64,000 nucleotides of DNA from an uncultured Bacilli bacterium (GCA_934091055.1 CAKOKN010000002.1:153-64152), one strand, 5' to 3'. Shown: positions 12,312 through 52,538, counted from the first letter of the stretch. Numbers and translations: made by a program. Notes: generated by a model not told the origin, from the letters alone.

Positions 12312-12387
12312 ACAACAACCTCACTTCAAAATACAAGTGTATTATATCATACATTAAATTAATAAACAAGTTTTATATTTTTTTCTT

Positions 12388-12441
12388 CACTCTAAGCCTG
12401 TAGTCTTAGAGTGTTATTTTAAGCCTCAGGTCTTAAAATAA
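12388..12441 (+). repeat. Modular stem-loop repeat, locus 2 (2 hairpins)
   Basis: CACTCTAAG-CCTGTAGT-CTTAGAGTG (12388-12413) and TTATTTTAAG-CCTCAGGT-CTTAAAATAA (12414-12441). Lies between divergent gene starts. Confidence 0.85.
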
Positions 12442-12495
12442 ACAATACTTTTGCATTATTTAGTCAAATATGTTATTATATAACCGGTGATAATT

Positions 12496-13638
12496 ATGCA
12501 TAAAATTGGTATAATCGCAGAATATAATCCATTTCACAATGGTCATTTATATCAAATAAAAGAAATAAAAAAAAGATATCCAGATAGCACAATAATATCA
12601 GTAGTATCTTCATCATTTACCCAAAGGGGAGATATTTCATTATTAAATAAATGGGATAAAACTAAAATAGAATTAGATCAAGGTATCGACTTAGTAATAG
12701 AACTGCCTTTTGTTTATTCTACTCAGGCTTCAGATATCTTCGCCGAAGGAGCAGTAAAAATACTAAATTATCTAGGTATAGACACTCTAGTATTTGGAAC
12801 TGAAAGAGATACCATTGAGGAATTAGAATTACTCGCAGATATTCAAATAAATAATAAAGAATATCAAGAAAAAGTAAAACAATATCTAAGTACAGGCTTA
12901 AACTATGCTACTAGTACTAATAAAGCTCTCGAAGATATAACAAATGTAAAAGTAGATACTCCAAATGATTTACTTGCACTATCATATATAAAACAAATAA
13001 AATTAAATAAATATAATATAAAATATACCAATATAAAAAGAACAACTTCATATCACGGAAGTGAAATAAAGAATAATATTAGTTCTGCTAGTAATATAAG
13101 AGAAATGTTTGCAAATAATCAAGATATTGATAATTTAATGCCATTTGATAAAAAGTATTTATATAAAGTAAGCATCAATAATTATTTAGATATATTAAAA
13201 TATAAAGTATTATCTGAAGATATTAATATAAATAAATATCAGACAGTAGATGAAGGTATTGAGGGAAGAATAATAGATAATATTACTAAAGTAACTACTT
13301 ATGAAGAGTTAATACAAAATATAAAAACTAAACGATATACATATAACAAAATATCTAGAATGTTACTACATATACTAACTAGTTTTACTAAAGAAGAAGC
13401 ATCAAATATAGATATAGACTATATTAGAGTATTAGGTTTCACTACCAAAGGTCAAGAATACCTAAGTAAAATAAAAAAGAATATAACTATTCCTATAATA
13501 ACAGGATATAAAAAAAATATATCTAAAGTATTAGATATAGAATATAGAGTTACTAAGATATATTCATTATTTACTTCCTCTAGTCTTATCAAAAAAGAGT
13601 ATCAAATAAAACCAATAATTAAAGAAAATAATGACTAA
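12496..13638 (+). CDS. tmcAL: tRNA(Met) cytidine acetate ligase (TmcAL/YlbM family nucleotidyltransferase)
   Basis: IGIIAEYNPFHNGHLYQIKE N-terminal HIGH-like motif, ~380 aa. Start placed at the ATG after the GGTGA RBS (ORF track starts at GTG 12487). Confidence 0.8.
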   Translation: MHKIGIIAEYNPFHNGHLYQIKEIKKRYPDSTIISVVSSSFTQRGDISLLNKWDKTKIELDQGIDLVIELPFVYSTQASDIFAEGAVKILNYLGIDTLVFGTERDTIEELELLADIQINNKEYQEKVKQYLSTGLNYATSTNKALEDITNVKVDTPNDLLALSYIKQIKLNKYNIKYTNIKRTTSYHGSEIKNNISSASNIREMFANNQDIDNLMPFDKKYLYKVSINNYLDILKYKVLSEDININKYQTVDEGIEGRIIDNITKVTTYEELIQNIKTKRYTYNKISRMLLHILTSFTKEEASNIDIDYIRVLGFTTKGQEYLSKIKKNITIPIITGYKKNISKVLDIEYRVTKIYSLFTSSSLIKKEYQIKPIIKENND

Positions 13639-26400: not shown

Positions 26401-28089
26401 ATGATGAGCATCCTCTTCCCAAGGAACATTATATCTCTTAACCAAAGCAGATAAACTATGTCTAGAATATCCTGTATCAATAGCTCTAGATAATTCTAAT
26501 GTATCAATAACCGTATTTTGAAATTCACCTAAATCATATTTTTTCATTGCACTAGAAATAAATGAAATATCAAATTTAGCATTATGAGCTACCATTGGTA
26601 AATCGCCAGTCCATTCTAAAAATCTCTTAGTAACATTTTCTTCATTATCTTTACCTTTAACCATCTCATCAGTAATACAAGTAAGCGCGGTAATCTTATC
26701 AGGAATATGTCTACCTGGATCAATAAGTTCATCAAATCTATCAATAATATTACCATCTTTAATCTTAACAGCACCAATTTCTATCATTTGGTCAGTACCA
26801 CCAGCATTAAAACCAGTAGTCTCAGTATCAAATACCACAAAAGTAGTACCTGATAGAGGTCTATCATCACTTCTAACTACAATATCGACAGTATCATCAA
26901 CTACCGTAAGCTCAGTACCATATAGTCCCTTAAAATGTTTACTAGGATCTTCTATTCCCTTATTATGACCAGATATAATACCATAAGCAATTGGAAATGC
27001 CTGACAACCACTATGATCTGTAATAGCAACCCCTCTATAACCCATATCAATACATTTATTTACCAGTTCACAAGTATGTTTACCAAGATCAACTCTAGTA
27101 ATACCATCCATTTGACTCATCATAGTATGTGCGTGAAGTTCTACTCTTTTAACAGGAGCATCATCCACTATCTTCTCAGCAGCAGGCTTCTCTATCTTTT
27201 CTACATCTTTATATCTCGTCGTAAAAGTAAGTTCATTAGAATACTTATCCATAGCTACTTTACCATAAAAGTTATACCAAGAACCAACCTTAAGTAAATC
27301 TTTAATTCTAGCATATTCATCATTATCTTTAGTAAACATCTTAACATAAATACTATCATTATTATCCGTAACCTTAAGAGTGATAATTTTATAACCACTC
27401 TTAGATTCAAACATATCGATGCCAAAGATAGTACCTTCTATAGTAATATTATCTACTTCATACATTAAATCTTTAATTGGAGTAATACTAGTATCCTTCT
27501 TAGGTCTAAAGTACTTCTTCTCTTCTGTTTTAACCTCACTAGCAGTCTCTTTCTTTGGGCTGACTACTTTAGGAGCCTCTACTACTTTTTCACGCTCTAT
27601 CTCTTTAAGTAATTCTTGTTCTTTTTCTTCTACTAAACTAAGTTCTAAACTCTTATTAAAACCATAATCTTTAAGACAATTATTAATATAATTAAGTTTC
27701 TCAATCAAATAAGAATTTTCTGCTTTATTATATACTTCAAATACATATTTATTATCTACTACATTAACATTTCTACCAATAAATACTCTATATTTATAAC
27801 TATCATTACTAAATATATTAATTAAATTATCTATATAATCATTAATATATTCATCATTATCTTCAGTTACTATAACACTAAGTTTAATATCTTCAATAGT
27901 ACTAAAATTAATCTTAATTTTATTAATAAGTTCAGTATATATATATACAGGTAGTATCTTATCATTTTCTATAATAAAATTCCATAATTTATTATTATCA
28001 TAGACTACTATTTTCTTAATACTAGCCTTTTCTAAATAGTCAGTATTCATACCAATTTGATCTAGTAATCTCTTCATTTTATCTTGCAT
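23464..28089 (-). CDS. polC: DNA polymerase III alpha subunit, PolC type
   Basis: 1541 aa. PHP motif VELHAHTMMS, inserted 3'-5' exonuclease FVVFDTETTG...HNAKFDISF...HRADYDA, zinc module CLKCKH...CPVCG, polymerase core PDIDLNF. Confidence 0.97.
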   Translation of the reverse strand: MQDKMKRLLDQIGMNTDYLEKASIKKIVVYDNNKLWNFIIENDKILPVYIYTELINKIKINFSTIEDIKLSVIVTEDNDEYINDYIDNLINIFSNDSYKYRVFIGRNVNVVDNKYVFEVYNKAENSYLIEKLNYINNCLKDYGFNKSLELSLVEEKEQELLKEIEREKVVEAPKVVSPKKETASEVKTEEKKYFRPKKDTSITPIKDLMYEVDNITIEGTIFGIDMFESKSGYKIITLKVTDNNDSIYVKMFTKDNDEYARIKDLLKVGSWYNFYGKVAMDKYSNELTFTTRYKDVEKIEKPAAEKIVDDAPVKRVELHAHTMMSQMDGITRVDLGKHTCELVNKCIDMGYRGVAITDHSGCQAFPIAYGIISGHNKGIEDPSKHFKGLYGTELTVVDDTVDIVVRSDDRPLSGTTFVVFDTETTGFNAGGTDQMIEIGAVKIKDGNIIDRFDELIDPGRHIPDKITALTCITDEMVKGKDNEENVTKRFLEWTGDLPMVAHNAKFDISFISSAMKKYDLGEFQNTVIDTLELSRAIDTGYSRHSLSALVKRYNVPWEEDAHHRADYDAEGTAYVFHKMISKLTMQNLSKISDLDKLIPKDEIYKFGRTYHFNAIALNKKGLKNLFKIISLANTTYLYKTPRILRSRLNELREGLIIGSGCYESEVFIEARSKEGEELTNIINFYDYVEVQPPEVYGHLIQTSDFKDEFEIKEHIKKIITATREAGKIIVATGDVHHFTREDKIYREIIVNQKVPGGGRHPLAKSSITSIPSQHFRTTKEMLNDFAFLGEEEAYEIVVTNTNKVLDMVEEIEVIIDTGGIPFSPRVKSDDGKSYLDCPRVVTDLVFNRAKDWYGDNLPHNIEERISTELYGNIVYKCWEEKLKKEYPDISNEEFESKLFENLHNTLISGYDTVNELVINYAREHWNEEDGELTDKTVEKKVKKLFGGVIGGGFDPIYLIAQRLVKHSNDEGFLVGSRGSVGSSFVATMMGITEVNPLPAHYRCLKCKHSIFKDDDGKDLGATYSSGFDLPDKMCPVCGERLYKDGQDMPFATFLGFNADKVPDIDLNFSDLNQASAHEYTKVLFGVDNVYRAGTIGTVAEKTAFGFVKGFFEDKGITNKRSCEIERLAMGCTGVKRTTGQHPGGIVVVPDYMDVSDFTPFQFPAEDPTSAWRTTHFDYHAIDQDLLKLDILGHSDPTQLRLIQELSGTDILKVPLDDKDTMSIFTSTKALGVTNEQIMCDTGTLGIPEFGTPFTISLVYETKPTTFAELIKISGLSHGTDVWLGNAQELIKNNIVPFKEVIGCRDDIMVYLMYHGVEPIKAFKIMEFVRKGKASKDPETWAKHKETMEKAGIESWFIDSCFKIKYMFPKAHAAAYVISAFRIAWYKVHMPAYFYASWYSTKATDFDIEAMIKGYDDIKRVLTEIEGKGYDATNKENGVSECLKVALEMAARGIKVAPYDLYKSKGMIFTVGDDKTIIPPFRAIDGLGDVVAKNIEKEAERAPFISIEDFQTRCKVSQTLIEKMRSMGIFSGMPETSQLSLF

Positions 28090-40697: not shown

Positions 40698-42440
40698 ATG
40701 GAATTTAAAGATAAATTTAATGAACTACTTAATAAATTAAACTGTACATCAAGGAAACTATCCGTAGAATCTGGAATATCAGAATCAGTAATAAGCAGAT
40801 ACAGAAGTGGAGAAAGAACTCCAAAGAGTGATAGTAAACAAATAAAAAAAATAATCGAAGCCTTATATAATGTTTCACTAGAACAAAAAAGTCCTAAATA
40901 TACTAGAAAAGACATCGAAAAAATATTAATTAATTCACTAAAAGAACAAAATCCATTTGATTATGATAATTTAAGTAAAAATTTAAATGAATTAATTTTG
41001 GCATTAAATATAAATATAAATGATATGTCTAAGTATATAGTTTTTGATTCTTCACATATATCAAGAATTAGATATGGTAAAACAAAACCTTCTGACCCAT
41101 TAGAGTTTAGTACTAAAATAGCAAACTATATAATGTCAAAGTATAATGGTAATGAAGATAAAAAAGTATTAAAGGAATTAATAAATTGTCAAGATGAAGA
41201 ATTACAAGATAAAAAAATATTTGAAACAATATATAATTATTTAACTAATAGTACTAGTAGTCCATCTAAAGATTATATAAATGATTTTTTAAATAATTTA
41301 GATAACTTTAATTTAAACAACTATATAAAAGCTATAAAATTTGATGAATTAAAGGTTCCTAATCTACCATTTTATATTATAAAGAATAAAACATACTATG
41401 GTATTGAAGAAATGAAAAAAGGAGAACTAGATTTCTTTAAAGCTACTGTTTTATCAAAAAGTAAAGAGGATATCTTTATGTGTAGTGATATGCCTATGGA
41501 AGATATGGCTAAAGATATTGATTTTGGTAAAAAATGGATGTTTGCTATAGCGATGTCATTAAAGAAAGGATTACATATAAATATAATTCATAATTTAGAT
41601 AGACCATTTAATGAAATGATGTTAGGTTTAGAAAGTTGGATACCAATATATATGACTGGACAAGTATCACCATATTATTTAAAAGAAGTAAAAAATACTC
41701 CATATAATCACTTAAATTATGTTTCAGGAGTAGCAGCCTTATCAGGAGAATGCATAAAAGGTTATCATAATAAAGGTAAATATTACTTAACAAGTAACAG
41801 TAGAGAACTAGAATATTATCAAGAAAAGAAAGATTTACTTTTAAAAAAAGCTAATTCATTAATGGATATCTATAATGAGTTAAATATAAATAAACTAAAA
41901 GCATTTCTTTTAAAAGATACTAAAGTAATCGCAGATAGAAAAAGAATTTTATCTTCATTACCATTATTTACAATTAATGATGAACTATTACTTAAAATAT
42001 TAAAGAGAAATAAATTAAGTAAAGAAGAAATAAAAAAGATAGTAAATTACAAAAAAGAAGAAGAAAAAAATATTAATATAATATTAAAGAATAGTATTAT
42101 AACTGATAACATTTTTATCGAAGAAAAAAGCACTTTTGATAAAGATAATATATACTTATCATTAGAAAATATCTTTTACAAAGATAAAATAAAATATACT
42201 TATGAAGAATATAAAGAACATTTAAAAAATACTAGAGATTATTCAAAGAAAAATAAAAACTACAAAATAAATATAAATAATATTAAAACATTTAATAATA
42301 TATCTATAAACATAGTAAAAGATAATTATGTTGTAATAACTAAACAAGACTTTCCTACTATCCACTTTATAATTAGACACCCAAAGTTAATTGATGCAAT
42401 AAATAATTTTAATCCATTGGTAATAGAAAAAGATCTATAG
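40698..42440 (+). CDS. Tandem XRE-type HTH protein with large uncharacterised C-terminal region
   Basis: 580 aa. HTH 1 LNCTSRKLSVESGISESVISRYRSGERTP; HTH 2 LNININDMSKYIVFDSSHISRIRYGKTKP. The remaining ~430 aa have no recognisable motif. GAGGTGA RBS. Confidence 0.6.
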   Translation: MEFKDKFNELLNKLNCTSRKLSVESGISESVISRYRSGERTPKSDSKQIKKIIEALYNVSLEQKSPKYTRKDIEKILINSLKEQNPFDYDNLSKNLNELILALNININDMSKYIVFDSSHISRIRYGKTKPSDPLEFSTKIANYIMSKYNGNEDKKVLKELINCQDEELQDKKIFETIYNYLTNSTSSPSKDYINDFLNNLDNFNLNNYIKAIKFDELKVPNLPFYIIKNKTYYGIEEMKKGELDFFKATVLSKSKEDIFMCSDMPMEDMAKDIDFGKKWMFAIAMSLKKGLHINIIHNLDRPFNEMMLGLESWIPIYMTGQVSPYYLKEVKNTPYNHLNYVSGVAALSGECIKGYHNKGKYYLTSNSRELEYYQEKKDLLLKKANSLMDIYNELNINKLKAFLLKDTKVIADRKRILSSLPLFTINDELLLKILKRNKLSKEEIKKIVNYKKEEEKNINIILKNSIITDNIFIEEKSTFDKDNIYLSLENIFYKDKIKYTYEEYKEHLKNTRDYSKKNKNYKININNIKTFNNISINIVKDNYVVITKQDFPTIHFIIRHPKLIDAINNFNPLVIEKDL

Positions 42441-42466
42441 ACTTTAAAGTTAATAGATCTTTTTAT
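42427..42466 (+). terminator. Intrinsic terminator of the HTH gene
   Basis: Stem AAAAGATCTAT (42427-42438) / ATAGATCTTTT (42453-42464) followed by T residues. The stem overlaps the stop codon. Confidence 0.55.
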
Positions 42467-42580
42467 TAATTATCAAATTTTTCTAGGCAATGTATATATT
42501 CAATTGTTGAGTCTTTTAAATGTTATTATTATCTTCTCCAACAACATATATTTTTAATTTTAAATTTAGTCATAATTATT

Positions 42581-43264
42581 TCATATCTCAATCCATTGAT
42601 TATTTTTCCATATCATATTAAAGTTTTTAGAATTCTTAGCTTCCTTTTTCCATATATAATGTTCAACATCAGCTACATTTAATTCAAGTTCATTGCACGC
42701 TATTTCAAACAATTCAACTGCATACTTGTCATTTACTTTTCTGCCAACTATTTCTGATATTTTATTTTTAATATGGACATCAGGTTTAACAGTATTAGCT
42801 CCTAAAAGCATTCTAATGTATTGAAATGTTGTAAAACCAATACCCGTGACATTAAAATCATTATAATCTTTAATGCTAGATTGACTTGCCCACCTTCTTA
42901 ATGAGAGTAATTCATTTCTACATTTATATAAGTTTGCTATTTCAATAAATCGATTACACAAATTATATAACATTCTGACTCTATCTGGATGATTATAATT
43001 CCAACAATCTTTAAATTCATCAATTCCAACGCTCTCTATCAGCTTACTCAAGTCCTCTAGTGTCATTATATCTGGATATTTGTTTTGAAAATAAGTAATT
43101 CTAGGAACAACAAAAGTATAATATTTTCTGTTTATAGATAAAACAGCATCTAGACATACTAATACAGCATTTTCATAATTGCCAAGTGCCTTTTCTTCTA
43201 CATTATCTATATTAATATCTGATAAATACTCTTTTAATAAAAATAAATCCTTTTCTTTTTTCAT
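42581..43264 (-). CDS. Hypothetical protein with helix-hairpin-helix / EndoIII-like motif
   Basis: 227 aa. VTGIGFTTFQYIRMLLGANTVKPDVHI resembles the HhH plus downstream Asp (xVDTH) arrangement of HhH-GPD glycosylases. Ends in TGA. Confidence 0.35.
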   Translation of the reverse strand: MKKEKDLFLLKEYLSDINIDNVEEKALGNYENAVLVCLDAVLSINRKYYTFVVPRITYFQNKYPDIMTLEDLSKLIESVGIDEFKDCWNYNHPDRVRMLYNLCNRFIEIANLYKCRNELLSLRRWASQSSIKDYNDFNVTGIGFTTFQYIRMLLGANTVKPDVHIKNKISEIVGRKVNDKYAVELFEIACNELELNVADVEHYIWKKEAKNSKNFNMIWKNNQWIEI

Positions 43265-43286
43265 GTGCTTTAATTCCTTTAATAAA

Positions 43287-43889
43287 TTAATAACTTTTAT
43301 TAGGGCTAATATAAGGTTCGTATGTGTTTTTATATTTATTTATAGTTTCACTAACATTAAACCAATAAACATTTGTTAGTATTCCATCAGATGGATCTAC
43401 CTCTGTTCTTTCAAGCTTGCCACCTAATGCTTTTAATGTTCTATCTGATCCAATATTATTAACATCACAATCTAACATAACCTCGTCGAGACCTAGCTTT
43501 TGTGCTTCAATCAAACCTAAATATAAATTTATTTTATTATAGCCTTTTCTTCTTTCTGTTGGTCTAATTCCATAACCAATATGACCTCCAAATTGTAACA
43601 TTGACTCATTTAAATTCCATCTAACATTAATTGCACCAACAATTTTATCATCATTTTCTCTAATAAGTAAAAATGTTTTTGATTGGCATCTCCCAAATTT
43701 TTCTGCATATTCTTTATTTTCCATATTTAAACATCTTTGTAGGGCCTGTTCAAAAGTGTAACCATCAAATATTTTGTTTAATGATCCAATCCCATTCGTA
43801 TCAGAATTATATTCAGCAAGTTCATTAATGTATTCCATTATCTCACTTTTTCTTCCAATTGAGGGCTTTTCTAAATAGAATTTTTCCAT
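43287..43889 (-). CDS. GNAT family N-acetyltransferase
   Basis: 200 aa. GYGIRPTERRKGYNKINLYLGLIEAQKLG acetyl-CoA-binding-type motif (R/QxxGxG/A-like) and VMLDCDVNNIGSDRTLKALGG. Confidence 0.7.
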   Translation of the reverse strand: MEKFYLEKPSIGRKSEIMEYINELAEYNSDTNGIGSLNKIFDGYTFEQALQRCLNMENKEYAEKFGRCQSKTFLLIRENDDKIVGAINVRWNLNESMLQFGGHIGYGIRPTERRKGYNKINLYLGLIEAQKLGLDEVMLDCDVNNIGSDRTLKALGGKLERTEVDPSDGILTNVYWFNVSETINKYKNTYEPYISPNKSY

Positions 43890-44051
43890 AATATTTCTTT
43901 CTAATACTCCTTCTTTAATTAATAACTATTATTTAATCAAAATGTCCACACAACCAAAATTATGTGGACAAATTGTAATCTTTTCTTCATTATTAAATCG
44001 TTTTTTGTAATTCAAAATTTTGAAATCATTTGTTTTATAACGAATTGTAAA

Positions 44052-46550
44052 TTATTTACCACAGCATTGTTTATACTTCTTTCCACTGCCACATGGACAA
44101 GGATCATTTCTACCAACCTTAGTACTCTTCTTTTGTACCTTAGTGTGGTCTTTACTATCGTTAGTAATAGCATTCTTAACAACCTGTTTTCTTTCAATAT
44201 TCTGTCTTATCTCAGACTTCAATAAATAAATACTAATATCTCTATTAATTCTAGCAAGCATTTCATCAAATAGTTGGTAACCTTCCATAGTATATGCCTG
44301 AAGTGGACTAGTATTAGCATAACCTCTAAGACCAATACCATCTCTTAAATGACTCATCGTAGAAATATGTTCCATCCAATAATTATCAATAACTCTAAGA
44401 GAAATAGCTTTTTCAAATTCATCTCTAACTTCCTCAGGAATATCTTCTAATTTCTCTTCATAATCCTTAACAGCATTATTATAGATAATATCAATTACCT
44501 CCTCAGGATGCCTATTATTAATTTCTGCTAGAGTAATTCTATATTTTCTAAGTAAATTCTCATTAACAGCCTCAAGTATTTCACTATAATCATTTTCCTT
44601 AAGTTTATTATTATCCACTAAATGTGAATTAACAATATCACTAATGTAATTTTTAAATCCTTGAAGAACAGACTCATGTATAGAATCATTATCAAGTATT
44701 TCATTTCTCTTGCCATAAATAATTTCTCTTTGATTATTCATAACATCATCATAGTTAAGAAGTTGTTTTCTAATATCAAAGTTATTACCCTCAACCTTTG
44801 TTTGAGCAGACTCAACAGTTTTAGAGAACATTTTATTTTGGATAGCTTGTTCTCCAGTAAATCCTAAGTTTTCCAACATACCTCTATATCTATCTGAACC
44901 AAATCTAACCATCAAATCATCTTCAAATGATACATAAAATTGAGTAAATCCAGGATCTCCTTGTCTTCCACTTCTACCTCTTAACTGATTATCAATTCTT
45001 CTAGATTCGTGTCTTTCACTACCGATAACACACAAACCACCAAGTTCTTTAACACCTTCACCAAGTTTGATATCAGTACCACGACCAGCCATATTAGTGG
45101 CAATGGTAACAGAGCCTTTTTCTCCAGCTTTAGCAATAATTTCAGCCTCTCTTGCGTGGTTCTTAGCATTTAGTACCTCGTGGGGAATTTTCTTTTTAGT
45201 AAGCATCTTACTAAGTAATTCTGAAGTTTCAATAGCAATAGTACCAACAAGTACTGGTTGTCCTAATTTATGTCTTCTTTCTATTTCTTTTACAATAGCA
45301 GAATACTTTCCTGCTTTACCAGGATATAATAAGTCTGTAGCATCCTCTCTAATAACAGGTTTATTTGTAGGAATTTGAATAACAAACATATTATAAATAT
45401 TTCTAAATTCCTCTTCTTCTGTTTTAGCAGTACCAGTCATACCAGCAATTTTATTATACATTCTAAAGTAGTTTTGGAAAGTAATTGTAGCCAAAGTTTT
45501 AGTCTCTTGTTGAATTTTAACACCTTCTTTAGCCTCAATAGCTTGATGAAGTCCATCTGAGAAAGCTCTACCTTTCATAAGTCTACCAGTAAATTGGTCT
45601 ACGATAACAACTTCACCATCTTGTACAACATAATCAACATCTAAACTCATAGTATAATTAGCTTTAAGTGCTTGATTAATATGATGTACTAAAGAAGTAT
45701 TATTAATATCATATAAATTATCTAAATGAAATCTCTCTTCTGCCTTTCTACTGCCTTCTTCAGTAAGACTGACAGCTTTAGTTTTTTCATCCATAATATA
45801 GTCCTCATTTTCATTTAAACTTTTGACAAATCTATCAGCATCCATATATAGATTAGCGGATTGCATAACTCCACCAGATATAATAAGAGGAGTTCTAGCT
45901 TCATCTATTAGAATAGAGTCAACCTCATCGACAATGCAGTAGTTAAGAGGTCTTTGTACTCTATTTTCTTTTTTGACAACCATATTATCTCTTAAATAGT
46001 CAAAACCAAGTTCGTTATTAGTACTATATAAAATATCACAATTATAAGCTTCTTGTTTTTCTTTGAAAGATAACTCTCTTAAATTAAGTCCAACAGTAAG
46101 ACCTAGAAATCTAAATATACTACCCATCCACTCAGAGTCTCTGGTAGACAAGAATTCATTAACTGTAACTATATGAACACCTTTACCTGTTAGAGCGTTT
46201 AAATAAGCAGGAAGTACACAAGTAAGTGTTTTACCTTCACCAGTTTTCATCTCTGCAATATTACCATAGTGAATAGCAAGACCACCTAGTAATTGGCAAT
46301 AGAAAGGCTTCATACCTACACATCTATAAGCTGCTTCTCTAGCAACAGCAAAAGCTTCAACTAATATATCTTCAAGAGTTTCTCCTTCTTCTAATCTTTT
46401 CTTAAATTTATCAGTATAACTAGCAAGTTTTTTATCAGATAATTTACTCATTTCTTCATCTAATGCATCTATTTGATCTGCTAGTTTACTAAATCTATAT
46501 AACTCTTTATACTCATTATCAAATAATTTCTTAAGTGTTTTAAACATCAA
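44052..46550 (-). CDS. secA: Preprotein translocase ATPase SecA
   Basis: 832 aa. MKTGEGKTL Walker [32 protein letters not shown]-terminal zinc motif [14 protein letters not shown]. Confidence 0.97.
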
Positions 46551-46633
46551 ATCATCTCCTAGATAATATTTTACTATATTTTAACTAAAAAAACTAGTAA
46601 ATATTTAATATTTACCATATTTTATTATAGTTT

Positions 46634-46716
46634 CACTTCGTGTCTATAGTCACTCAGTGTTTTTTGAAGCCAAAGGTCTTCAAAAAAGAGTTTTAAAGCC
46701 TAAGGTCTTTAAAACT
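46634..46716 (+). repeat. Modular stem-loop repeat, locus 7 (diverged M1 plus 2 hairpins)
   Basis: ACTTCGTGTCTATAGTCACTCAGT (46635-46658), TTTTTTGAAG-CCAAAGGT-CTTCAAAAAA (46660-46686), AGTTTTAAAG-CCTAAGGT-CTTTAAAACT (46689-46716). Confidence 0.85.
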
Positions 46717-46837
46717 TTAAAGTTATTAATGGTCATTATTACTAAAAAACAAGTCATAATGTGAAGTCGCAGTATAAATATAGACACAAAAAAACAAGTC
46801 TACATTTTTTTGTTATAATAAAATTGAAGGTAAAAAT

Positions 46838-46981
46838 ATGACAAGAATAAGAAAAGAACCAAATAGATATTGGTCAAAAGAAGAAAAGATAAAAATAATT
46901 AATGAAGTATTATTAAATTATAAAATCAATCTATCAACAGCCATTGTGGATAGACTAATACCCAAATTAATTCATATATGA
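46838..46981 (+). pseudogene. Possible remnant of an IS3-family transposase OrfA N-terminus (47 codons)
   Basis: My translation is MTRIRKEPNRYWSKEEKIKIINEVLLNYKINLSTAIVDRLIPKLIHI*. The RxYSxEEKLKIIxE-type start is typical of IS3/IS150 OrfA HTH proteins, but it stops after ~30 matching residues. No inverted repeats identified. Confidence 0.3.
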
Positions 46982-47021
46982 TATAATAATAATATAAACT
47001 ATTAGAAAGGAAGTAAACACT

Positions 47022-47918
47022 ATGAACATAAACTTAGAACTATATAAAACTTTTTATTATGTGGCTAAAAATGGTAATATAACAAGAGCGGCTAATGAAA
47101 TGATGATAAGTCAGCCAGCAATAAGTAAAAGTATTAAGACATTAGAAAATCAAATGGAAGTTAAACTTTTTGTTAGAAAAAGAGAAGGCGTAATATTAAC
47201 TGATGTGGGAGAAACCTTATATAAGAAAATAAAAGAAGCAATGGAATTAATTGAGTCTGCTGAAAATGACATAAAAGCTTTAACAAGTATGGAAATGGGA
47301 GTTATCAATATAGGAGCTAGTAAGACCATTTTACATGAATATTTAATGCCATATATAAAAAAATTTCACAAACAATATCCTAAGATAAATATTAGAATTT
47401 TTACGGATAAGACGGAAGAACTTATAAAAAAATCAAAGATTGGTTTAATTGATATAATATTCACAAATATGCCATACACTATTCCAAAAGAATTTAAAAT
47501 ATATAAATTAATGGAACTGCACGATTGCTTCGTGGCCAACGAAAATTTTAATTATCTAAAAGATAGAAAATTAAAACCAAGTGATTTAGAAAAACTACCA
47601 TTATTAGTATTAACAAAGGGAGCTACGACTAGGATAAGACTAGATGAATATTGTACTGAAAATAAAATAACAATACATCCAGAAATGGAGTTTGGTAGTA
47701 ATACACTTATAAAAGAATTTACTGAAGCAGGTTTTGGAATAGGAATGCTAACATATGAACACGTAAAAAAAGAATTAGATGATGGTACTCTATTTAAATT
47801 GAATATAGAAATACCACTTAAAGAAAAATATTTAGCGATGATCAACAATCCAGAAAATAGAAGTTTAATAACCAAAAACTTTATAAATTATATAAAAGAC
47901 AACACTAGTAATAGCTAA
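47022..47918 (+). CDS. LysR-family transcriptional regulator
   Basis: 298 aa. N-terminal LysR HTH LYKTFYYVAKNGNITRAANEMMISQPAISKSIKTLENQMEVKLFVR plus a substrate-binding-type C-terminus. Confidence 0.88.
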   Translation: MNINLELYKTFYYVAKNGNITRAANEMMISQPAISKSIKTLENQMEVKLFVRKREGVILTDVGETLYKKIKEAMELIESAENDIKALTSMEMGVINIGASKTILHEYLMPYIKKFHKQYPKINIRIFTDKTEELIKKSKIGLIDIIFTNMPYTIPKEFKIYKLMELHDCFVANENFNYLKDRKLKPSDLEKLPLLVLTKGATTRIRLDEYCTENKITIHPEMEFGSNTLIKEFTEAGFGIGMLTYEHVKKELDDGTLFKLNIEIPLKEKYLAMINNPENRSLITKNFINYIKDNTSNS

Positions 47919-49723
47919 TGTTGTCTTTTACCTTTTTTAATATTATTTTCCTCAATTTCATAAATAGAAGCATTCACAAATCTATGAAGTTCAATTAAAT
48001 ATCTAATTGTAGAGGCGTAATCTATATAATCATCATAATTTAATGATCCATCATTGCTTTTTGATAAAGTCAAATCTAAATTATCATCAAATACAGTGTT
48101 ATATATTTCAGCAAATTTTTTATTTATATAAGTTTTAATGTTTTTAATATTTGCAATGTTGTCGCGAATGTTAATAGTAAAAACTTTATTTACCTTACCA
48201 ATAGATATTTTAAATTCACCACTAATAGATATATTAGAATCATCGATAATACTAAAACTAAAATTATATGGTTCGCTGTTATAGTGTTTGTCTTTTTGGT
48301 CAATTAATTTTTGGAAGTCCCTTTTAGATATAGAATAAAAGGTATTTAAAACGTTTACAATATTATTATCAATAGTAGCAGCATTTTTCATAATTACAAG
48401 AATATTATAAATAAAATCTTCATAATTAATATTTGAAGTTAATATTAAATTAATTAAATATTTTGGTAATTTTCTTTGAAAATCATCACTAGCATAACCT
48501 CCATTTAGATGACTAGTATTTAGAATATCCATAATGTTTTTTTGAAAAATCTTGTTACTATTACTTCGAGCATTTTTAATTTGAAATGTTACTTTTTTTA
48601 AGCCATCAATAAGAGTTTCATTAGGAGTTCCATCAAAATTAGTATATCTATCATCAAAGTCATATATTATACCATTATTATTACTATCAGCAAGTTGTTC
48701 TTTTCTTTTCTCTTGCATTTGATCTTGAGAGACAATGGTACTTCTTGAATCTATAAATGTAACATTTGTAGTAAATGTTGTTTGAACTTTAGTTAAATTA
48801 GAGTTAGAAACATTTATATAATTTTTTAAATCTACGCTATTTAGTGCTACTATAGAATATAAACGATAGCATCCTAGTGTATCATCAAATATGGAAATAA
48901 GACCTAAATATCCATCAGTATTAGGAATATTTACAAGACTCATAATCTTTTTTTTAGATTGGTTGCAGACATATGTTAAAGTTTCAGTAGCACGTGAAGG
49001 AACTAAGCCACTTCCAATATTAATACTACTTAAAAGTAATTCTAAACAAGATCTCTTATAACCAATTTTATCAGTGTTATCTTTGTTTTCAAAAGAACTG
49101 TTTTGACTAATATCTATAAATAAATTATCAAACCAAGTTTGTTTAAAATTGCTATCAGTTAACATTGCAACAATTAAGTCAAAATAATTATTATAGTTAA
49201 CATTGTTGCTAGCTAAATAATTAGTCATCTCAGTATTTAAACTATTTCTAATACTGCTCACACTAGGTAATCCAAATAAATGAGGAATATTTTGCCTATC
49301 AATATAAATTCTGTAAGAATTTTCAGTTTGTGTAACAGTTAAGTAGTGTTCACTATATCTATCAACTGTGGTTTTAGCAGTTCTAAAATCATCTCTAATG
49401 GCCCTTTTTGCCAAAATAGGTTCTAAACTAGTATCAGATTTTTCAAGAACTTTTTTTCTAGTGTTTTCTCTATTTTGCATTGAAAATGAAGATAATATAG
49501 AAATATTAGGATCCGCTCCCTTGCTTTTAGTATCATCTTCACCAAGTAAGTTATCTGAATTTAAGCCAGTAGCATTTTGTGAAGTGTTTTTTGCATAGTT
49601 ATTGACGGTTAAAGGAGTATAGGTGGTTATTATTCCAAGGCTCATTAAAATTTCTAGCGAAGACATATCGGGAATATTATTATACCTTATTTGAAATTTA
49701 TTAATGGAACTAATCGAAGACAT
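47915..49723 (-). CDS. Large hypothetical protein (602 aa), second gene of an uncharacterised pair
   Basis: Long uninterrupted ORF. AAGGAGAG RBS embedded in the last codons of the upstream gene, with a 3-nt gap. No TM helix, signal peptide or catalytic motif recognisable by eye. Confidence 0.6.
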   Translation of the reverse strand: MSSISSINKFQIRYNNIPDMSSLEILMSLGIITTYTPLTVNNYAKNTSQNATGLNSDNLLGEDDTKSKGADPNISILSSFSMQNRENTRKKVLEKSDTSLEPILAKRAIRDDFRTAKTTVDRYSEHYLTVTQTENSYRIYIDRQNIPHLFGLPSVSSIRNSLNTEMTNYLASNNVNYNNYFDLIVAMLTDSNFKQTWFDNLFIDISQNSSFENKDNTDKIGYKRSCLELLLSSINIGSGLVPSRATETLTYVCNQSKKKIMSLVNIPNTDGYLGLISIFDDTLGCYRLYSIVALNSVDLKNYINVSNSNLTKVQTTFTTNVTFIDSRSTIVSQDQMQEKRKEQLADSNNNGIIYDFDDRYTNFDGTPNETLIDGLKKVTFQIKNARSNSNKIFQKNIMDILNTSHLNGGYASDDFQRKLPKYLINLILTSNINYEDFIYNILVIMKNAATIDNNIVNVLNTFYSISKRDFQKLIDQKDKHYNSEPYNFSFSIIDDSNISISGEFKISIGKVNKVFTINIRDNIANIKNIKTYINKKFAEIYNTVFDDNLDLTLSKSNDGSLNYDDYIDYASTIRYLIELHRFVNASIYEIEENNIKKGKRQH

Positions 49724-49726
49724 ACA

Positions 49727-50737
49727 TTATGCTCTCCTTTGCTTTTTAGGCTGAGGCTCACCAGAAAGTATTTCTTTTTCTTTTTTTGTCATTAATTCAG
49801 ATAAATCAACTTCTTTTTTAATACTTTTTGTATTCATAATAAAGCTGTTAATATAAACATCATTATTTTCTTCAAAATTTATTTTAAAGTCTTCTTTGAC
49901 ATTCATATTTAAAAAAGATATAACTTCATTCATCATCAAGAATAATTTATTTCTATTCATATCATTAGCATTACCCCAAAAGGTAACTATAACCTTATTG
50001 TTAGTACCGCCTAATGTTTCTAACAAGTATAATAGTGTTGTTACAGAATATGGGTTTTGAATAAGAAAAGTTTTACCATCATCTATTTTTTCTACATTAT
50101 CTTTAGTTACCTTAAATAACATCTTATCTTTCTTATATAGAATAGAATTATCCTCTCCGAGAGTACTTGCATATGGTGAAATAAGATTTTTTCTTTCTTT
50201 ATCAGCAGCATCTAATTTTCCTTTATATAACTCTATTACATCATCATTTTTTGGATCTATGCCCATCTTTAATAAATGGTCAACATATATATCGATCATA
50301 TTGTAATTGATTAAAGTCCATTGTTTAAAGTTATTATCTGAAGAAAACAAAGTATTGGAGTTGCTTATGTTATTATCAATAATATATTTTACAACATTTG
50401 ATGGATCATAACCTAACTTATTACAATAAAGAATATATAATTCTAAAGCGTATTCCATTGTATTACTGATTTTATAATCACCAAGTCTATTTAATTTATA
50501 ATCATTATTATATATATCATACTTACTTGTGTCTAAATTATGTTTATCATTAATTATGTTTTTACTTGTTTCTGTGTAATCACCAGGATCTATAATATTA
50601 TTTATATTGTAATCATCATTCATATTATTACTTGAATTATAATTACCTATATTTGTGTCTTCATCTTTAATTTTTCTATTAACATTAGCCCAATTGTTTT
50701 CTTGCGATATTTTGTAATTTATTGAATTTCTTTCCAT
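49727..50737 (-). CDS. Hypothetical protein (336 aa), first gene of an uncharacterised pair
   Basis: AAGGAGAG RBS 8 nt upstream of the ATG. Asn/Asp-rich N-terminal ~90 aa, basic tail KKQRRA. No recognisable motif. Confidence 0.6.
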   Translation of the reverse strand: MERNSINYKISQENNWANVNRKIKDEDTNIGNYNSSNNMNDDYNINNIIDPGDYTETSKNIINDKHNLDTSKYDIYNNDYKLNRLGDYKISNTMEYALELYILYCNKLGYDPSNVVKYIIDNNISNSNTLFSSDNNFKQWTLINYNMIDIYVDHLLKMGIDPKNDDVIELYKGKLDAADKERKNLISPYASTLGEDNSILYKKDKMLFKVTKDNVEKIDDGKTFLIQNPYSVTTLLYLLETLGGTNNKVIVTFWGNANDMNRNKLFLMMNEVISFLNMNVKEDFKINFEENNDVYINSFIMNTKSIKKEVDLSELMTKKEKEILSGEPQPKKQRRA

Positions 50738-51023
50738 AATTTTAAATCACTCTCCTTCTTTGAAAATAACTAAATCTAGATAAAAATATTATATCATACA
50801 AATTAAATAGTTAAAATACATATTAATTATGCAAGATATAACTTTATGTTATGGTAAATACATATTAATATATATAATTCATTATACCAAAAAAGAATTA
50901 TAATATCAATATCAGTAAAAGCCTTATATAACTAAAAGTTATAATTAAAATAACAAATATGTATTTTACTTATATAATATACAATGATATAATACAAACT
51001 GATTTTCAGAAAGGAGGAAATTT

Positions 51024-51242
51024 ATGGGCAATTTAAATAATAAAAACAAAGAAGTATTAACAGATGCAGAAATAATAAAAATCATTAAGGTTCTATTGGA
51101 AATGTTAGAATATAGAAGAAGATTAGAAATAGAATATCCAAATATAATTTCAACCAGTGAACTAGATAAATACAAAAATAATATAAACAATGATGATAAG
51201 TACACAAAAATTAAAAAGAATAATTATATAAGTTATAAATAA
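51024..51242 (+). CDS. Small hypothetical protein (72 aa)
   Basis: Strong RBS GAAAGGAGGAAATTTATG. Predicted helical and charged. Divergent from the 336/602-aa pair. Confidence 0.5.
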   Translation: MGNLNNKNKEVLTDAEIIKIIKVLLEMLEYRRRLEIEYPNIISTSELDKYKNNINNDDKYTKIKKNNYISYK

Positions 51243-51325
51243 TAGAGGATAAAGATGAAAGAAATTAAAAAATTATATTTGTGTTTATGATGAAAAGCCA
51301 CGAATAAAAAGGAAGAAGGTATAAA

Positions 51326-51916
51326 ATGAGAAAAGAAGAATTAATAAAGCTTAAAGAAAAATTAGAAATGGAAAAAAGAAATCAAAGTAAATACGTTTTA
51401 GTTGATGATACAGGAATTTCAGGAGATAATCACTTTACATTAGAAGAAATTAAAAAAAGAAATGATGAAAAAGAGCTTGTCAAAAATATAGAAAAATTAT
51501 TTGAAGAATTAATACATCATTATTCTGATTTGGATATAGCATATGACTCCATAAACTTGTTAATAAGTTATGCCTTATTTTATAAAAAATATGATTATTT
51601 AAAAAAAGAAAGTTATCCAGAAAATTTTAAACCACTATATGATTATATCTGTTTAAGAATAAGTTACTTTTATTGTTCTGAAAGAGAAAAAGAATATGAA
51701 GAGGATCCAACAGACATATTAGTTAAATATGATAAGGAATATATTATGACTTTAAGTAGTTTTAAGAGAACTCTAGTAGAAAGAGGTTTTGACATATCAT
51801 TAATACATGATTTTAAAGAGGTTGAAGAGTATATATCAAATGAAGAAATACTATGTGCTAAATTACCGATTAATTTTTCCAGTACTAATTCAAAAACAAA
51901 AAAATATGTGAGATAA
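51326..51916 (+). CDS. Hypothetical protein (196 aa)
   Basis: RBS AAGGAAGAAGG upstream of the ATG. No recognisable motif. Followed by a clean terminator. Confidence 0.5.
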   Translation: MRKEELIKLKEKLEMEKRNQSKYVLVDDTGISGDNHFTLEEIKKRNDEKELVKNIEKLFEELIHHYSDLDIAYDSINLLISYALFYKKYDYLKKESYPENFKPLYDYICLRISYFYCSEREKEYEEDPTDILVKYDKEYIMTLSSFKRTLVERGFDISLIHDFKEVEEYISNEEILCAKLPINFSSTNSKTKKYVR

Positions 51917-52010: not shown

Positions 52011-52538
52011 TTATTTAGTTTCAATTAAACCATAGTCGCCATCTTTTCTCTTATAAAGTACACATACCTTATCAGTATCCATATCTTTATATACAAAGAA
52101 AGAGTGCCCTAATAGTTCCATTTCAAGTATAGCCTCTTCTTCATCCATAGGCTTCATTTCTATATTTTTCCTTTTAACTACTTTTTCTTTAGATTCTTCA
52201 TCTTCAAGAATTTCATAGTCAAAGTTGAATTCTTTAACATTCTCTTTAACATTTCTATTTAATCTTGTTTTATTCTTTCTGATTTGTCTTTCTAGCTTGT
52301 CTGTAACTAAGTCAATAGCGGCATATAAATCATCATTTTCTTCCTCACTTCTAAGAATAAACTTACTAGTAGGAATAGTTACCTCTACTATTTGATTATT
52401 GCCTCTAACTCTAGCAAGTACATTAGCAGTAATATCATCATCCTTAAAATATTTTTCAAGTCTTCCTAATTTAGATTCAGTGTAGTCTTTAATGGCGTCT
52501 GTAATCACCATTCTATCACCACGAATATTGTATTTCAT
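52011..52538 (-). CDS. hpf: Ribosome hibernation promoting factor, long form
   Basis: 175 aa from MKYNIRG. N-terminal RaiA/HPF fold (ITDAIKDYTESKLGRLEKYF) and C-terminal dimerisation domain (KPMDEEEAILEMELLGHSFFVY...YKRKDGDYGLIE). Confidence 0.9.
   Translation of the reverse strand: MKYNIRGDRMVITDAIKDYTESKLGRLEKYFKDDDITANVLARVRGNNQIVEVTIPTSKFILRSEEENDDLYAAIDLVTDKLERQIRKNKTRLNRNVKENVKEFNFDYEILEDEESKEKVVKRKNIEMKPMDEEEAILEMELLGHSFFVYKDMDTDKVCVLYKRKDGDYGLIETK

Follow-up and report, generated by a model that had tools for sequence, protein, structure and literature searches.

Within a 64,000-nt stretch of DNA from an uncultured Bacilli bacterium (the window; GCA_934091055.1, CAKOKN010000002.1:153-64152), two adjacent genes, here called A and B, are intact, translationally coupled and conserved as a pair, and the central domain of B shows conserved motifs and a consistent, sub-threshold similarity to the predicted RNase family PBECR4. 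Judging from its sequence, a phage-type RNase domain (PBECR4-like) that has diverged very far is probably concealed in B. The reading that we prefer, and hold tentatively, is that of a lineage-restricted module in which a BECR RNase in B has A as its partner and is gated by a LysR-type regulator.

A coupled gene pair under purifying selection

Both genes lie on the minus strand, each with its own Shine-Dalgarno sequence:
49727..50737, minus strand: gene A, 336 aa, intact ORF
47915..49723, minus strand: gene B, 602 aa, intact ORF
50750..50757, minus strand: Shine-Dalgarno sequence of gene A, AAGGAGAG, 12 nt before the ATG
49732..49739, minus strand: Shine-Dalgarno sequence of gene B, AAGGAGAG, 8 nt before the ATG

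The gap between the genes is 3 nt (49724-49726) and the AAGGAGAG of B is embedded in the last codons of A (Q-R-R-A-stop), so that A is translationally coupled to B on the same mRNA. At 26.5% GC, the chance of meeting no stop is ~9e-14 over the 336 codons of A and ~5e-24 over the 602 codons of B; A and B are therefore not chance ORFs. Furthermore, both are intact in 16 of 16 conspecific contigs and evolve under purifying selection (dN/dS of 0.15 for A and 0.24 for B), which bears out the initial annotation in its claim of a real two-gene unit. Neighbouring genes have dN/dS values of 0.04-0.07, the constraint on A, B and the divergent genes C and D (see below) being 3-5 times more relaxed.

The compositional traits described from the sequence at the outset are all present: A has a variable, Asn/Asp-rich N terminus (aa 1-~78) and a PKKQRRA tail, and the N terminus of B is Ser/Asn-rich. 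The proteins of the locus are strongly N/K/I/Y-rich overall. As had also been proposed, TM helices are lacking, with no TM-like 19-residue window in either protein (maximum KD 0.88 for A and 1.24 for B). At full length, neither A nor B gave an above-threshold domain match against Pfam, PADLOC, PHROGs, NCBIfam or PDB sequences. To this extent the earlier view of two proteins devoid of recognizable domains stands; it does not hold for the central domain of B taken separately.

A putative PBECR4-like domain in B

B begins with a conserved peptide (aa 1-45), followed by a linker that is both acidic and variable, the central PBECR4-like domain and a C-terminal region of ~300 aa. Outside the PBECR4-like block, the C-terminal ~300 aa included, no match to anything known was found. 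The relevant features are:
48824..49372, minus strand: putative BECR-fold (PBECR4-like) RNase domain, B aa ~118-300, placed by Pfam, hhalign and the alignment of the His
49280-49282, minus strand: codon of His148 of B, in NIPHLxGLP, invariant in five B lineages
48854-48856, minus strand: codon of Ser290 of B, in YxLxSxVAxN, invariant in five B lineages

Among 24,736 models, PBECR4 (Pfam PF18813; model length 188, gathering cutoff 27 bits) was the top or only Pfam match for five of the six domain sequences and the sole family to recur across them. The best match, given by the orthologous domain of lineage L003, has an E-value of 1.3e-5 and 26.1 bits and covers model positions 18-169 (152/188). 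Other domains of the B family yielded E-values of 1.2e-3, 1.7e-3 (the consensus, model positions 8-155), 0.043 and 0.18, all in the same register, with bit scores of 19.6 for P0002, 19.2 for the consensus and 14.6 for the window's own B domain. No B-family sequence reached the 27-bit cutoff, 26.1 being a near miss, and a Pfam scan of the full-length window B returned no PBECR4 match; searches of PHROGs and NCBIfam gave nothing consistent for the domain.

Comparison of the B domain with 11 genuine PBECR4 proteins by hhalign gave a score of 31.3, or 33.3 without a ~37-aa helical insertion that follows the His helix in B. The shuffle null was 13.5 +/- 2.7 with a maximum of 25.1, none of 200 shuffles reaching the B score (P of 5.7e-4 and 1.8e-4; 6.6-8.5 sd above shuffles). 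Only ~23-36 columns around the His motif are aligned with confidence, at a probability of 29-48%. In a reciprocal HMM search of 106 sequences, B segments took ranks 1-4 and the fifth segment rank 7, the small PBECR4 HMM built here scoring B at 5-8.5 bits only.

His148 of B is aligned with the invariant His of PBECR4 by both hmmsearch and hhalign. The literature on this RNase group describes an active-site His in the N-terminal (pre-alpha) helix, and His148 is predicted to be helical. In B as in PBECR4 proteins, a beta-hairpin is followed by N(F/I)xHLxG(I/L), the H-L-x-G of which is an invariant signature of PBECR4, and two phage PBECR4 proteins carry the B motif as NIPHLLGI and NIPHLFGL. It is the best-conserved block of B in the five-lineage alignment that is matched, and the order and spacings of the motifs are collinear, the later shared blocks being [FW]FxD, K.D.T, K(K/R)I(L/M)xL and Y/P...S/T-hydrophobic-L-N. 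Ser290 is found in the last predicted strand, where PBECR4 has P.[ST].L.L and the confident alignment stops short; from motif collinearity judged by eye, it is probably the second catalytic residue.

The AF2 model of B aa 118-300 has a pLDDT <50 and, at this low confidence, runs beta-beta-beta, helix (His148), helices, beta-beta-beta (Ser290), an order compatible with BECR. A Foldseek search of this model against the PDB returned no BECR structure, and there is no solved structure of a PBECR4 relative. If the central domain is a very divergent member of the PBECR4/colicin-like BECR group, it would most likely be a metal-independent endoribonuclease. To our knowledge, the RNase activity of the PBECR4 family has so far only been predicted. 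Our results lead us to withdraw the statement that B has no nuclease signature, given a match that is sub-threshold but consistent and exclusive to this predicted RNase family.

Gene A

The body of A (aa ~80-336) is conserved across homologues, which share 50-56% identity. The gene has no family or fold match, and its predicted model is confident only for aa ~150-318; the C-terminal domain weakly resembles IF3-C/Alba RNA-binding folds in a fold search that gave no significant match. Structure prediction and fold search left both A and B without a significant fold match. A is unlike known immunity or antitoxin proteins and unusually large for such a role, and shows no similarity to the genes adjoining genuine PBECR4 genes. 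None of the HTH, RHH and AbrB models matches it. Residues 98-120 show a helix-turn-helix-like pattern when judged by eye.

Divergent genes and a mirrored regulatory region

On the other side of A, genes are read away from it, so that C, E (where present) and D run in one direction and A and B in the other:
51024..51242, plus strand: gene C, 72 aa, basic (pI 9.1)
51326..51916, plus strand: gene D, 196 aa, acidic
51243..51325: scar of gene E (465 aa), deleted in this strain
50738..51023: divergent regulatory region between A and C, 286 bp, architecture conserved across lineages
50838..50852: palindrome P2, ATAACTTTATGTTAT (T-N11-A dyad), centred ~64 bp upstream of the predicted A-proximal start
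50928..50942: palindrome P1, ATAACTAAAAGTTAT, centred ~65 bp before the start predicted for the C promoter
50788..50819, minus strand: predicted A-proximal promoter, with -35-region element GTATTTTAA (50811-50819) and extended -10 TGATATAAT (hexamer 50788-50793)
50881..50909, minus strand: distal sigma-70-like promoter facing A, TTGATA-17-TATAAT with TG, 11/12 match
50965..50993, plus strand: predicted C promoter, TTTACT-17-TATAAT with TG, its -35 inside the conserved ATATGTATTTTACTTAT

C is conserved beside A-B in lineages L002 and L003 (49-52% identity), and D in L003 (39% identity, E 3e-43), its start being also found in L002. Their dN/dS values are 0.22 for C, with a frameshift in 1 of 16 strains, and 0.25 for D, with a premature stop in 1 of 16. 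Full-length copies of gene E are found in L024 and L002, and four other strains keep a remnant of 65 aa in frame; the gene is under loss within this species. A and B are thus never disrupted in the 16 contigs, and C, D and E are sometimes broken or deleted. No family match was found for C, D or E, the sole PADLOC match of D being a weak one to PglX (E 1.6e-4) that is probably compositional.

The region between A and C is read in both directions through the same series, mirrored: a palindrome, 18-19 nt, a GTATTTTAC-type -35 element, 17-18 nt and TATAAT. The promoters of the two divergent units have one -35-region element in common, which is unusual and conserved. The element and spacing of the A-proximal promoter are also found in L002, L003 and L007, as are the positions of the palindromes (four lineages in all), and the TGGTATAAT of the distal A-facing promoter is kept in L003 and L004. 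ATAAC-N5-GTTAT has two matches in the 64 kb, both in the A-C region, where 0.33 would be expected in the window. The co-conservation of C and D, with identical promoter architecture, argues for placing them in the same regulon as A-B. The conserved unit is A-B with divergent C and D, optionally E, and the operator/promoter region, that is, four to five genes; the two-gene operon first described is real as a coupled pair and too narrow as a description of the unit.

A LysR-type gene adjoins B on its other side:
47022..47918, plus strand: LysR-type regulator (HTH_1 and LysR_substrate), convergent with B
47892..47931: hairpin with a 17-bp stem, across the overlapping stops of B and the LysR gene

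The LysR gene overlaps the stop of B by 4 nt, has a dN/dS of 0.04 and is intact in 16 of 16 contigs. The hairpin probably terminates transcription from both sides and would thereby close the A-B operon. P1 and P2 are dyad-symmetric T-N11-A boxes, and such a dyad is the signature of LTTR proteins (PMC11495319). The classical LTTR site is a T-N11-A dyad near -65 (ATAC-N7-GTAT for BenM); the -64/-65 spacing seen here refers to starts predicted from the conserved -10 hexamers of four lineages. As in LTTR systems that act on closely spaced divergent promoters, such as ThnR (PMC4834489), there is one dyad box per divergent promoter and an adjacent LTTR gene. By this analogy the LysR protein is a candidate binder of P1/P2, and box geometry together with a LysR gene adjoining B makes it the likeliest one; C or A could be alternative binders. 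On the other hand, the LysR gene lies downstream of B and converges on it, whereas the classical arrangement is divergent, and binding and starts are here predicted only. LysR linkage is visible in one species only, and the -35-region element common to both promoters has no described counterpart.

Distribution and genomic context

A and B are adjacent in all five carrying lineages (L001-L004 and L007), and a B homologue lies directly downstream in 5 of 5 other-lineage contigs with an A homologue, confirming that the pair is conserved as a unit. These lineages are few, all of them uncultured, low-GC, human-gut Bacillota; A-B was found in 0 of 185,579 GTDB species representatives, and phage, IMG/VR and plasmid collections held no relatives. 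Searched exhaustively with HMMER, 1.84 billion representatives yielded only three relatives of B, and PADLOC gave no match, in keeping with the proposal of an undescribed system. In lineage L004, an IS element stands in place of the C-D side, and A-B persists.

The coordinates confirm the surroundings reported before, namely the convergent LysR gene and these flanking genes:
52011..52538, minus strand: hpf
44052..46550, minus strand: secA

The module occupies the same hpf-secA site in every conspecific contig examined and its GC3 equals that of its neighbours (native composition). These neighbours are housekeeping genes, and no association with mobile elements, phages, plasmids or defence islands was found. 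The fixed site, native GC3, housekeeping flanks and missing phage, plasmid or defence link do not support the earlier reading of the context as an island of defence or conflict genes. With such fixation, flanks and composition, a domesticated function fits as well as conflict.

Carriage of the B locus by a phage, plasmid or conjugative element was rejected, as it is chromosomal, at hpf-secA and fixed in the species. So was a known anti-phage defence system, A and B being without PADLOC match and among housekeeping neighbours.

Proposed mechanism and comparison with known systems

In the mechanism that we propose, A-B would form the invariable core of a module that is fixed in the chromosome and restricted to few lineages, the RNase effector being the central domain of B (aa ~118-300). 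Catalysis would involve His148, on the helix after a small beta-sheet, and probably Ser290 in the last strand. A may be a stoichiometric partner of B that works as an inhibitor, in the manner of immunity proteins, or else as a specificity subunit, such that the RNase activity of B would be freed only under particular conditions. LysR, bound at the ~-64/-65 dyads, would activate both divergent units, the module being switched on by a small-molecule or stress signal. We thus infer that B acts as an RNase with A in the role given here, that LysR controls the locus and that its purpose is conflict- or toxin-like, as opposed to housekeeping RNA processing. The further step of seeing in A-E and their mirrored operator-bearing promoters an undescribed, signal-gated, RNA-targeting conflict system, in which a divergent BECR effector lies between two novel domains, has four partners of new fold or family and was domesticated in a small clade of gut Bacillota, is a doubtful one.

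Stand-alone PBECR4 examples are WP_002301358.1 of an E. faecium plasmid, Orf87 of the lactococcal prophage phiLC3 and gp50 of phage 50101. They share with B a predicted metal-independent endoRNase chemistry and low-GC Gram-positive hosts. Known PBECR4 proteins are single-domain, of 170-300 aa, and reside on plasmids or prophages, whereas B is chromosomal, fixed and 602 aa long; it has an extra ~117 aa at the N terminus, ~300 aa at the C terminus, the ~37-aa insertion, a score under the Pfam cutoff and a large, unrelated upstream partner. Colicin D-ImmD, CdiA-CT/CdiI and BECR-Tox2/BECR-Imm2 resemble A-B in that a BECR RNase stands beside a domain-less, family-specific partner and both members diverge fast. 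In these pairs, however, a small immunity gene usually follows the toxin gene, and it is the tip at the C terminus of a secreted or delivered protein that acts as the toxin, whereas A is upstream with 336 aa and the RNase-like domain of B is internal; neither A nor B carries a secretion signal or a delivery domain. Polyvalent proteins (Iyer et al. 2017), which host genomes are known to capture, also contain a PBECR-type domain inside a larger multidomain protein, but B has none of their MPTase, MuF, portal, ArdC or other domains, stands apart from virion and conjugation genes and is without relatives on phages or plasmids.

Should B prove to be a working BECR RNase, it would represent a new architecture for this fold, with an internal catalytic domain between two novel domains and a large, unrelated, co-translated partner. 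LysR-type gating would then replace the autoregulation or delivery machinery of known BECR systems, and PBECR domains, known from phages and plasmids, would turn out to serve in a fixed chromosomal regulon as well. The locus yields four or five protein families without detectable relatives, and a compact operator/promoter design, conserved across species, that is directly testable. Since the carriers are few uncultured gut lineages, generality is limited and experiments depend on heterologous expression.

Alternative readings

It is unlikely that A-B is a classical self-contained toxin-antitoxin or abortive-infection pair, with B as RNase toxin, A as labile antitoxin autoregulating through the palindromes, and C, D, E and LysR as bystanders. 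The pair does share with type II systems its adjacency, 3-nt gap, embedded ribosome-binding site and conserved pairing, in the antitoxin-first layout typical of them, and the HTH-like stretch of A and the persistence of A-B beside the IS element of L004 are as expected. BECR RNases are common as toxin-antitoxin, immunity-paired and defence effectors, some stand-alone PBECR4 genes following a small HTH-like gene at a 4-nt gap and others being in moron position after a phage lysin. However, both proteins are far above the size of toxin-antitoxin components, no HTH model matches A, PADLOC is silent, the locus is single and fixed in the species, with no copy on a mobile element, plasmid or phage, and the co-conserved C and D have the same promoter architecture. 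The type II variant with a small DNA-binding antitoxin and a small toxin was rejected on the 336 and 602 aa and the lack of HTH, RHH or AbrB domains.

A domesticated, lineage-specific cellular function, be it in RNA processing, ribosome-associated or other, with the PBECR4-like domain co-opted or RNA-binding within an ordinary LysR regulon, is improbable to a similar degree. The syntenic hpf-secA site, native GC3 and purifying selection agree with it, LTTR-type control typically serves metabolic and stress regulons, A has the weak IF3-C/Alba likeness of its C-terminal domain, and some PBECR domains (MuF) are inactive and RNA-binding, host capture being known too (Iyer et al.). Nevertheless, the spread is extremely narrow (~5 lineages, none among GTDB representatives), constraint is looser than in the neighbours, E is under loss and C and D are occasionally disrupted, and the N termini are variable and of low complexity; furthermore, the invariant putative catalytic His and Ser argue against a purely inactive domain.

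Coming back to the RNase reading of B, we consider it quite improbable that the PBECR4 similarity is a spurious effect of a short HLxG beta-hairpin in a biased protein, all five proteins being true orphans with, for example, a structural or scaffold role: sub-cutoff scores, ~30 confidently aligned residues, missing fold support, the silence of PHROGs and NCBIfam and N/K/I/Y-rich composition would fit this, but one orthologue spans most of the model, the same family recurs for five of six sequences, the hhalign score stands well clear of the shuffles, and the match falls on the family-invariant signature and the most conserved block of B, with collinear motif order and spacing.

Genes A and B and their selective constraint

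The initial annotation had singled out two ORFs of 336 and 602 aa, separated by 3 nt and preceded by identical RBSs, the second of which is embedded in the first gene. Coordinates and sequence agree with this layout:

49727-50737 (-): gene A, 336 aa
47915-49723 (-): gene B, 602 aa, 3 nt from A
50750-50757 (-): RBS of A, AAGGAGAG
49732-49739 (-): RBS of B, AAGGAGAG, within the codons for A's final residues (…Q-R-R-A-stop)

That both are very likely real genes is borne out by the chance probability of such open frames, computed at 26.5% GC (~1e-13 for A and 5e-24 for B), and by their dN/dS values (0.15 and 0.24, respectively). The neighbouring genes for PrsA, RmuC, an NTP-transferase, LysR and SecA have values of 0.04-0.07; A and B are clearly under purifying selection, with a constraint 3-5 times more relaxed than that of their neighbours. 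Both were intact, as was the LysR gene, in all 16 contigs of the window's species, which come from human-gut metagenomes, Hadza samples among them. The low-complexity N-termini of both proteins and A's basic tail are present as first noted, and neither protein has a TM-like segment or a signal peptide.

A putative PBECR4-like domain in B

The proteins had been described as lacking any recognisable domain. This holds for full-length searches, for A and for most of B, but probably not for the most conserved block of B. When each B-family member was scanned separately against Pfam, one fragment gave a weak match on this block to PBECR4 (PF18813), a predicted phage-type RNase family with a BECR fold. 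With the query limited to the block (aa 100-310 of the window's B), PBECR4 was the top or sole Pfam family for five of six sequences, in a constant register.

Pfam matches of B-family blocks to PBECR4
L003 orthologue (another lineage): E 1.3e-5, 26.1 bits (cutoff 27), model 18-169 of 188
P0002 (B-family sequence): E 1.2e-3, 19.6 bits
B family consensus: E 1.7e-3, 19.2 bits, model 8-155
B of the window: E 0.043, 14.6 bits
L002 (another lineage): E 0.18

All B-family sequences missed the curated cutoff of 27 bits, the best reaching 26.1. Even at this sub-threshold level, the consistent register across five of six sequences overturns the earlier statement that B bears no nuclease signature.

We compared B with the genuine PBECR4 protein of E. 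faecium E8202 plasmid_2 (PMC11134301) and ten diverse plasmid/prophage homologues. An H-L-x-G motif and one Lys are invariant in these eleven proteins; NIPHLxGLP is invariant in B across the five-lineage alignment, and NIPHLLGI and NIPHLFGL occur in two phage PBECR4 proteins. Alignment of the five-lineage B domain with the eleven proteins by hhalign scored 31.3 (P 5.7e-4), and 33.3 (P 1.8e-4) once the ~37-residue insertion of B was removed, while 200 column-shuffled controls scored 13.5 ± 2.7 (maximum 25.1). The confident alignment spans only ~30 residues, and extension past the His block gave no confident alignment. The eleven proteins were also made into a small HMM, which ranked B segments 1-4 and 7 among 106 sequences, with only 5-8.5 bits, and aligned His148 of B to the PBECR4 His.

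[quoted passage not shown] In the 2026 BECR classification (bioRxiv 10.64898/2026.08.28.747851) the active-site residues lie on the pre-alpha element and the terminal β4, and extra strands precede the His-bearing pre-alpha element of PBECRs. Our low-confidence model of B shows three strands, the His148 helix, a helical insert and three further strands, the last of which bears the invariant Ser290. Taken together, these similarities suggest that the central domain of B is probably a remote homologue of PBECR4. A reading of RQNIPH in B as the HEPN Rx4-6H motif was dropped because the Arg is not conserved.

Stand-alone PBECR4 genes of the temperate lactic-acid-bacteria phages D4840, TMW 1.1447 P1 and 50101 (L033, L034 and L035) occupy the moron position, immediately behind the lysin gene at the end of the genome, and the one on L. 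salivarius pCTN1046 (L029) is preceded, with a 4-nt gap, by a 165-aa HTH-like, coiled-coil gene. No similarity was found between A and the genes flanking genuine PBECR4 genes.

Searches of the remaining sequence

Searches with full-length A, B and D (a 196-aa gene divergent from A) against Pfam, PADLOC, PHROGs and NCBIfam gave nothing credible, and sequence and profile searches of the PDB gave 0 matches. Similarities of A to Phage_head_fibr (E 0.006) and of B to GH114 (E 0.22) were rejected, as they did not recur in distant homologues. Consensus sequences of A-N, A-C, C, D, E, B-N and B-C had no match in Pfam, domain segments and consensus sequences yielded no consistent PHROGs family, and phages and plasmids searched by tblastn with the B domain gave nothing usable. 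All of A, C, D and E, together with the first 117 aa of B and its C-terminal ~300 aa, stayed without a match in every tool, segments and consensus sequences included.

AlphaFold2, run on shallow alignments, yielded a pLDDT of 53 for A, of which only aa ~150-318 are usable at moderate confidence, and of 45.5 for B, where only aa ~390-596 reach moderate confidence. Foldseek found no match at E <= 1e-3 in PDB or BFVD; IF3-C/Alba/methyltransferase-like matches to aa ~150-318 of A were discarded as non-significant (TMq ~0.17). Profile and fold searches, the kind of check initially proposed, left A unmatched and gave no fold match, but did yield the sub-threshold PBECR4 similarity in B. By eye, aa 98-120 of A (50378-50446, LELYILYCNKFGYDPSKVVKYII) resemble a helix-turn-helix, which is also predicted there at low confidence; HTH profiles did not match this segment.

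A constant A-B core with more dispensable genes C, D and E

Word-indexed searches over 5.8 billion proteins, in which matches were dominated by low-complexity words, returned one near-identical cluster each for A and B among the matches listed, and further relatives numbering at least one for B (41% identity) and at least five for A (50-56%). An exhaustive HMMER search with the B profile, covering 1.84 billion representatives, retrieved only 3 proteins and confirmed that B relatives are scarce. No further lineages turned up in the GTDB species representatives, in IMG/VR or in JGI metagenome contigs, where one fragment from the same species was the sole match. In every contig of another lineage that carries A (L001-L004 and L007), B is directly downstream: the survey of homologue co-occurrence shows that A-B is a conserved unit, and that its family is tiny. 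Where B seems interrupted in L004 there is a scaffold gap (runs of N), and its reading as a pseudogene was rejected. In L007, B has a 1-nt frameshift at a T5 run (~1640-1660), explicable either by an assembly error or by pseudogenisation. An rve-family transposase (L004, 106-1065) takes the place of the C-D side immediately upstream of A.

Two genes are divergent from A:

51024-51242 (+): gene C, on the upstream side of A, 72 aa, pI 9.1
51326-51916 (+): gene D, 196 aa

Homologues of C (49-52% identity) and of D (39% identity, E 3e-43) hold the equivalent positions in L002 and L003, so that the original description of a two-gene unit was too narrow. A 461-aa gene, E, lies between C and D in L002. 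Within the window's species the C-D interval is polymorphic. It measures 1411 bp in L024, with a full 465-aa E (11215-12612); 211 bp in four contigs (L006, 7683-7880; L017; L018; L022), where an in-frame internal deletion has left a 65-aa remnant of E, joined at a repeated 'KLIH'; and 83 bp in the window (51243-51325) and eleven other contigs, where E is wholly absent. The three states coexisting in one species record the loss of E as it happens. In one strain (L018) the reading frame of D stops prematurely at codon 171; C is altered in two strains (L019 and L011), by a 1-nt frameshift in one and a 3-nt indel in the other. Since E is polymorphic and C and D are occasionally disrupted while A-B is intact, A-B stands as the constant core of the unit, with C, D and E the more dispensable parts. 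The K/E-rich N-terminus of D (51326-51550) weakly matches the PADLOC PglX model (E 1.6e-4), a similarity that is probably compositional or coiled-coil-like and not homology.

Divergent promoters and the LysR gene

The A-C intergenic region (286 bp) has a design that is conserved between lineages with protein identities of only 35-55%. Each divergent direction has an ATAAC-N5-GTTAT palindrome, a spacer of 18-19 nt, an element overlapping the -35 that is common to both promoters (GTATTTTAC within ATATGTATTTTACTTAT), 17-18 nt and a TATAAT. The 64-kb window contains exactly two such palindromes, both in this region, against a chance expectation of 0.33. A third promoter, strong and sigma-70-like, faces A from between them. 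LysR-type boxes are usually placed near -65, and in the window, L002, L003 and L007 the palindrome centres are 64-65 bp upstream of the starts predicted from the -10 hexamers. A dyad-symmetric T-N11-A box characterises LysR-type regulatory sites (PMC11495319). The LysR gene, correctly reported as convergent with the pair, adjoins B and shares with it a probable terminator hairpin with a 17-bp stem, an adjacency known from contigs of the window's species. From this arrangement we infer that LysR may control both divergent units through the palindromes; alternatively C, small and basic, or A could bind them.

A chromosomally fixed module

Retrieval via hpf recovered the order hpf, D, [E], C, A, B, LysR, a 47-aa ORF and secA at all ten distinct conspecific places, and no empty-site (island-less) allele was seen among them.

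Within 46551-47021: 47-aa ORF between LysR and secA, called consistently by gene callers in all conspecific contigs

GC3 is 0.13-0.18 in A-D, in line with 0.16-0.21 in SecA and hpf, a compositional-island test on the module was negative, its flanks are housekeeping genes, and PADLOC and phage/plasmid/IMG/VR searches detected no phage, plasmid or defence-system signal at the module. The module is not a variable island, and the defence-island context first ascribed to it does not stand.

The reading we favour, though somewhat short of probable, is that of a chromosomally fixed, regulator-gated module. B would be its effector, a putative divergent BECR RNase; A, as co-translated partner, would control or direct this RNase, with C, D and E in an accessory role. 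The data speak for a conflict role and a domesticated one alike: the narrow distribution, the relaxed constraint and the decay seen in E, C and D point to conflict, and fixation, native composition and LTTR-type control to domestication. As a rival reading, a domesticated role in cellular RNA processing or in a stress regulon is rather unlikely. We give the same small weight to a self-contained toxin-antitoxin or Abi-like pair. Weaker still, given the short alignment and sub-cutoff scores on one side and the constant register and shuffled controls on the other, is the account in which the PBECR4 match is spurious and all the proteins are true orphans. If the BECR assignment of B holds, the module combines a known effector fold with a novel architecture, partner and regulation, and does not form a wholly new category of system. 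Its candidacy as an undescribed system survives in weakened form, shorn of the no-nuclease, two-gene-unit and defence-island claims.

Across the 64 kb, no Rfam family reached its gathering score (no riboswitch, T-box, leader or tRNA-like match). A strain-variable hotspot does exist beyond secA, on the side opposite to the module (~40700-44050 in the window; ~18600-20500 in L015-L019). Strains differ there, among other things, by a tyrosine integrase with ParA, by several acetyltransferases, by a phosphodiesterase and by a protein of 580 aa that faintly matches HTH_3. Elsewhere in the window, a 1541-aa ORF (23464-28089, -) is a PolC-type DNA polymerase III (PDB 9qpc and 3f2b, E=0), which identifies the host as a Bacillota-type organism.
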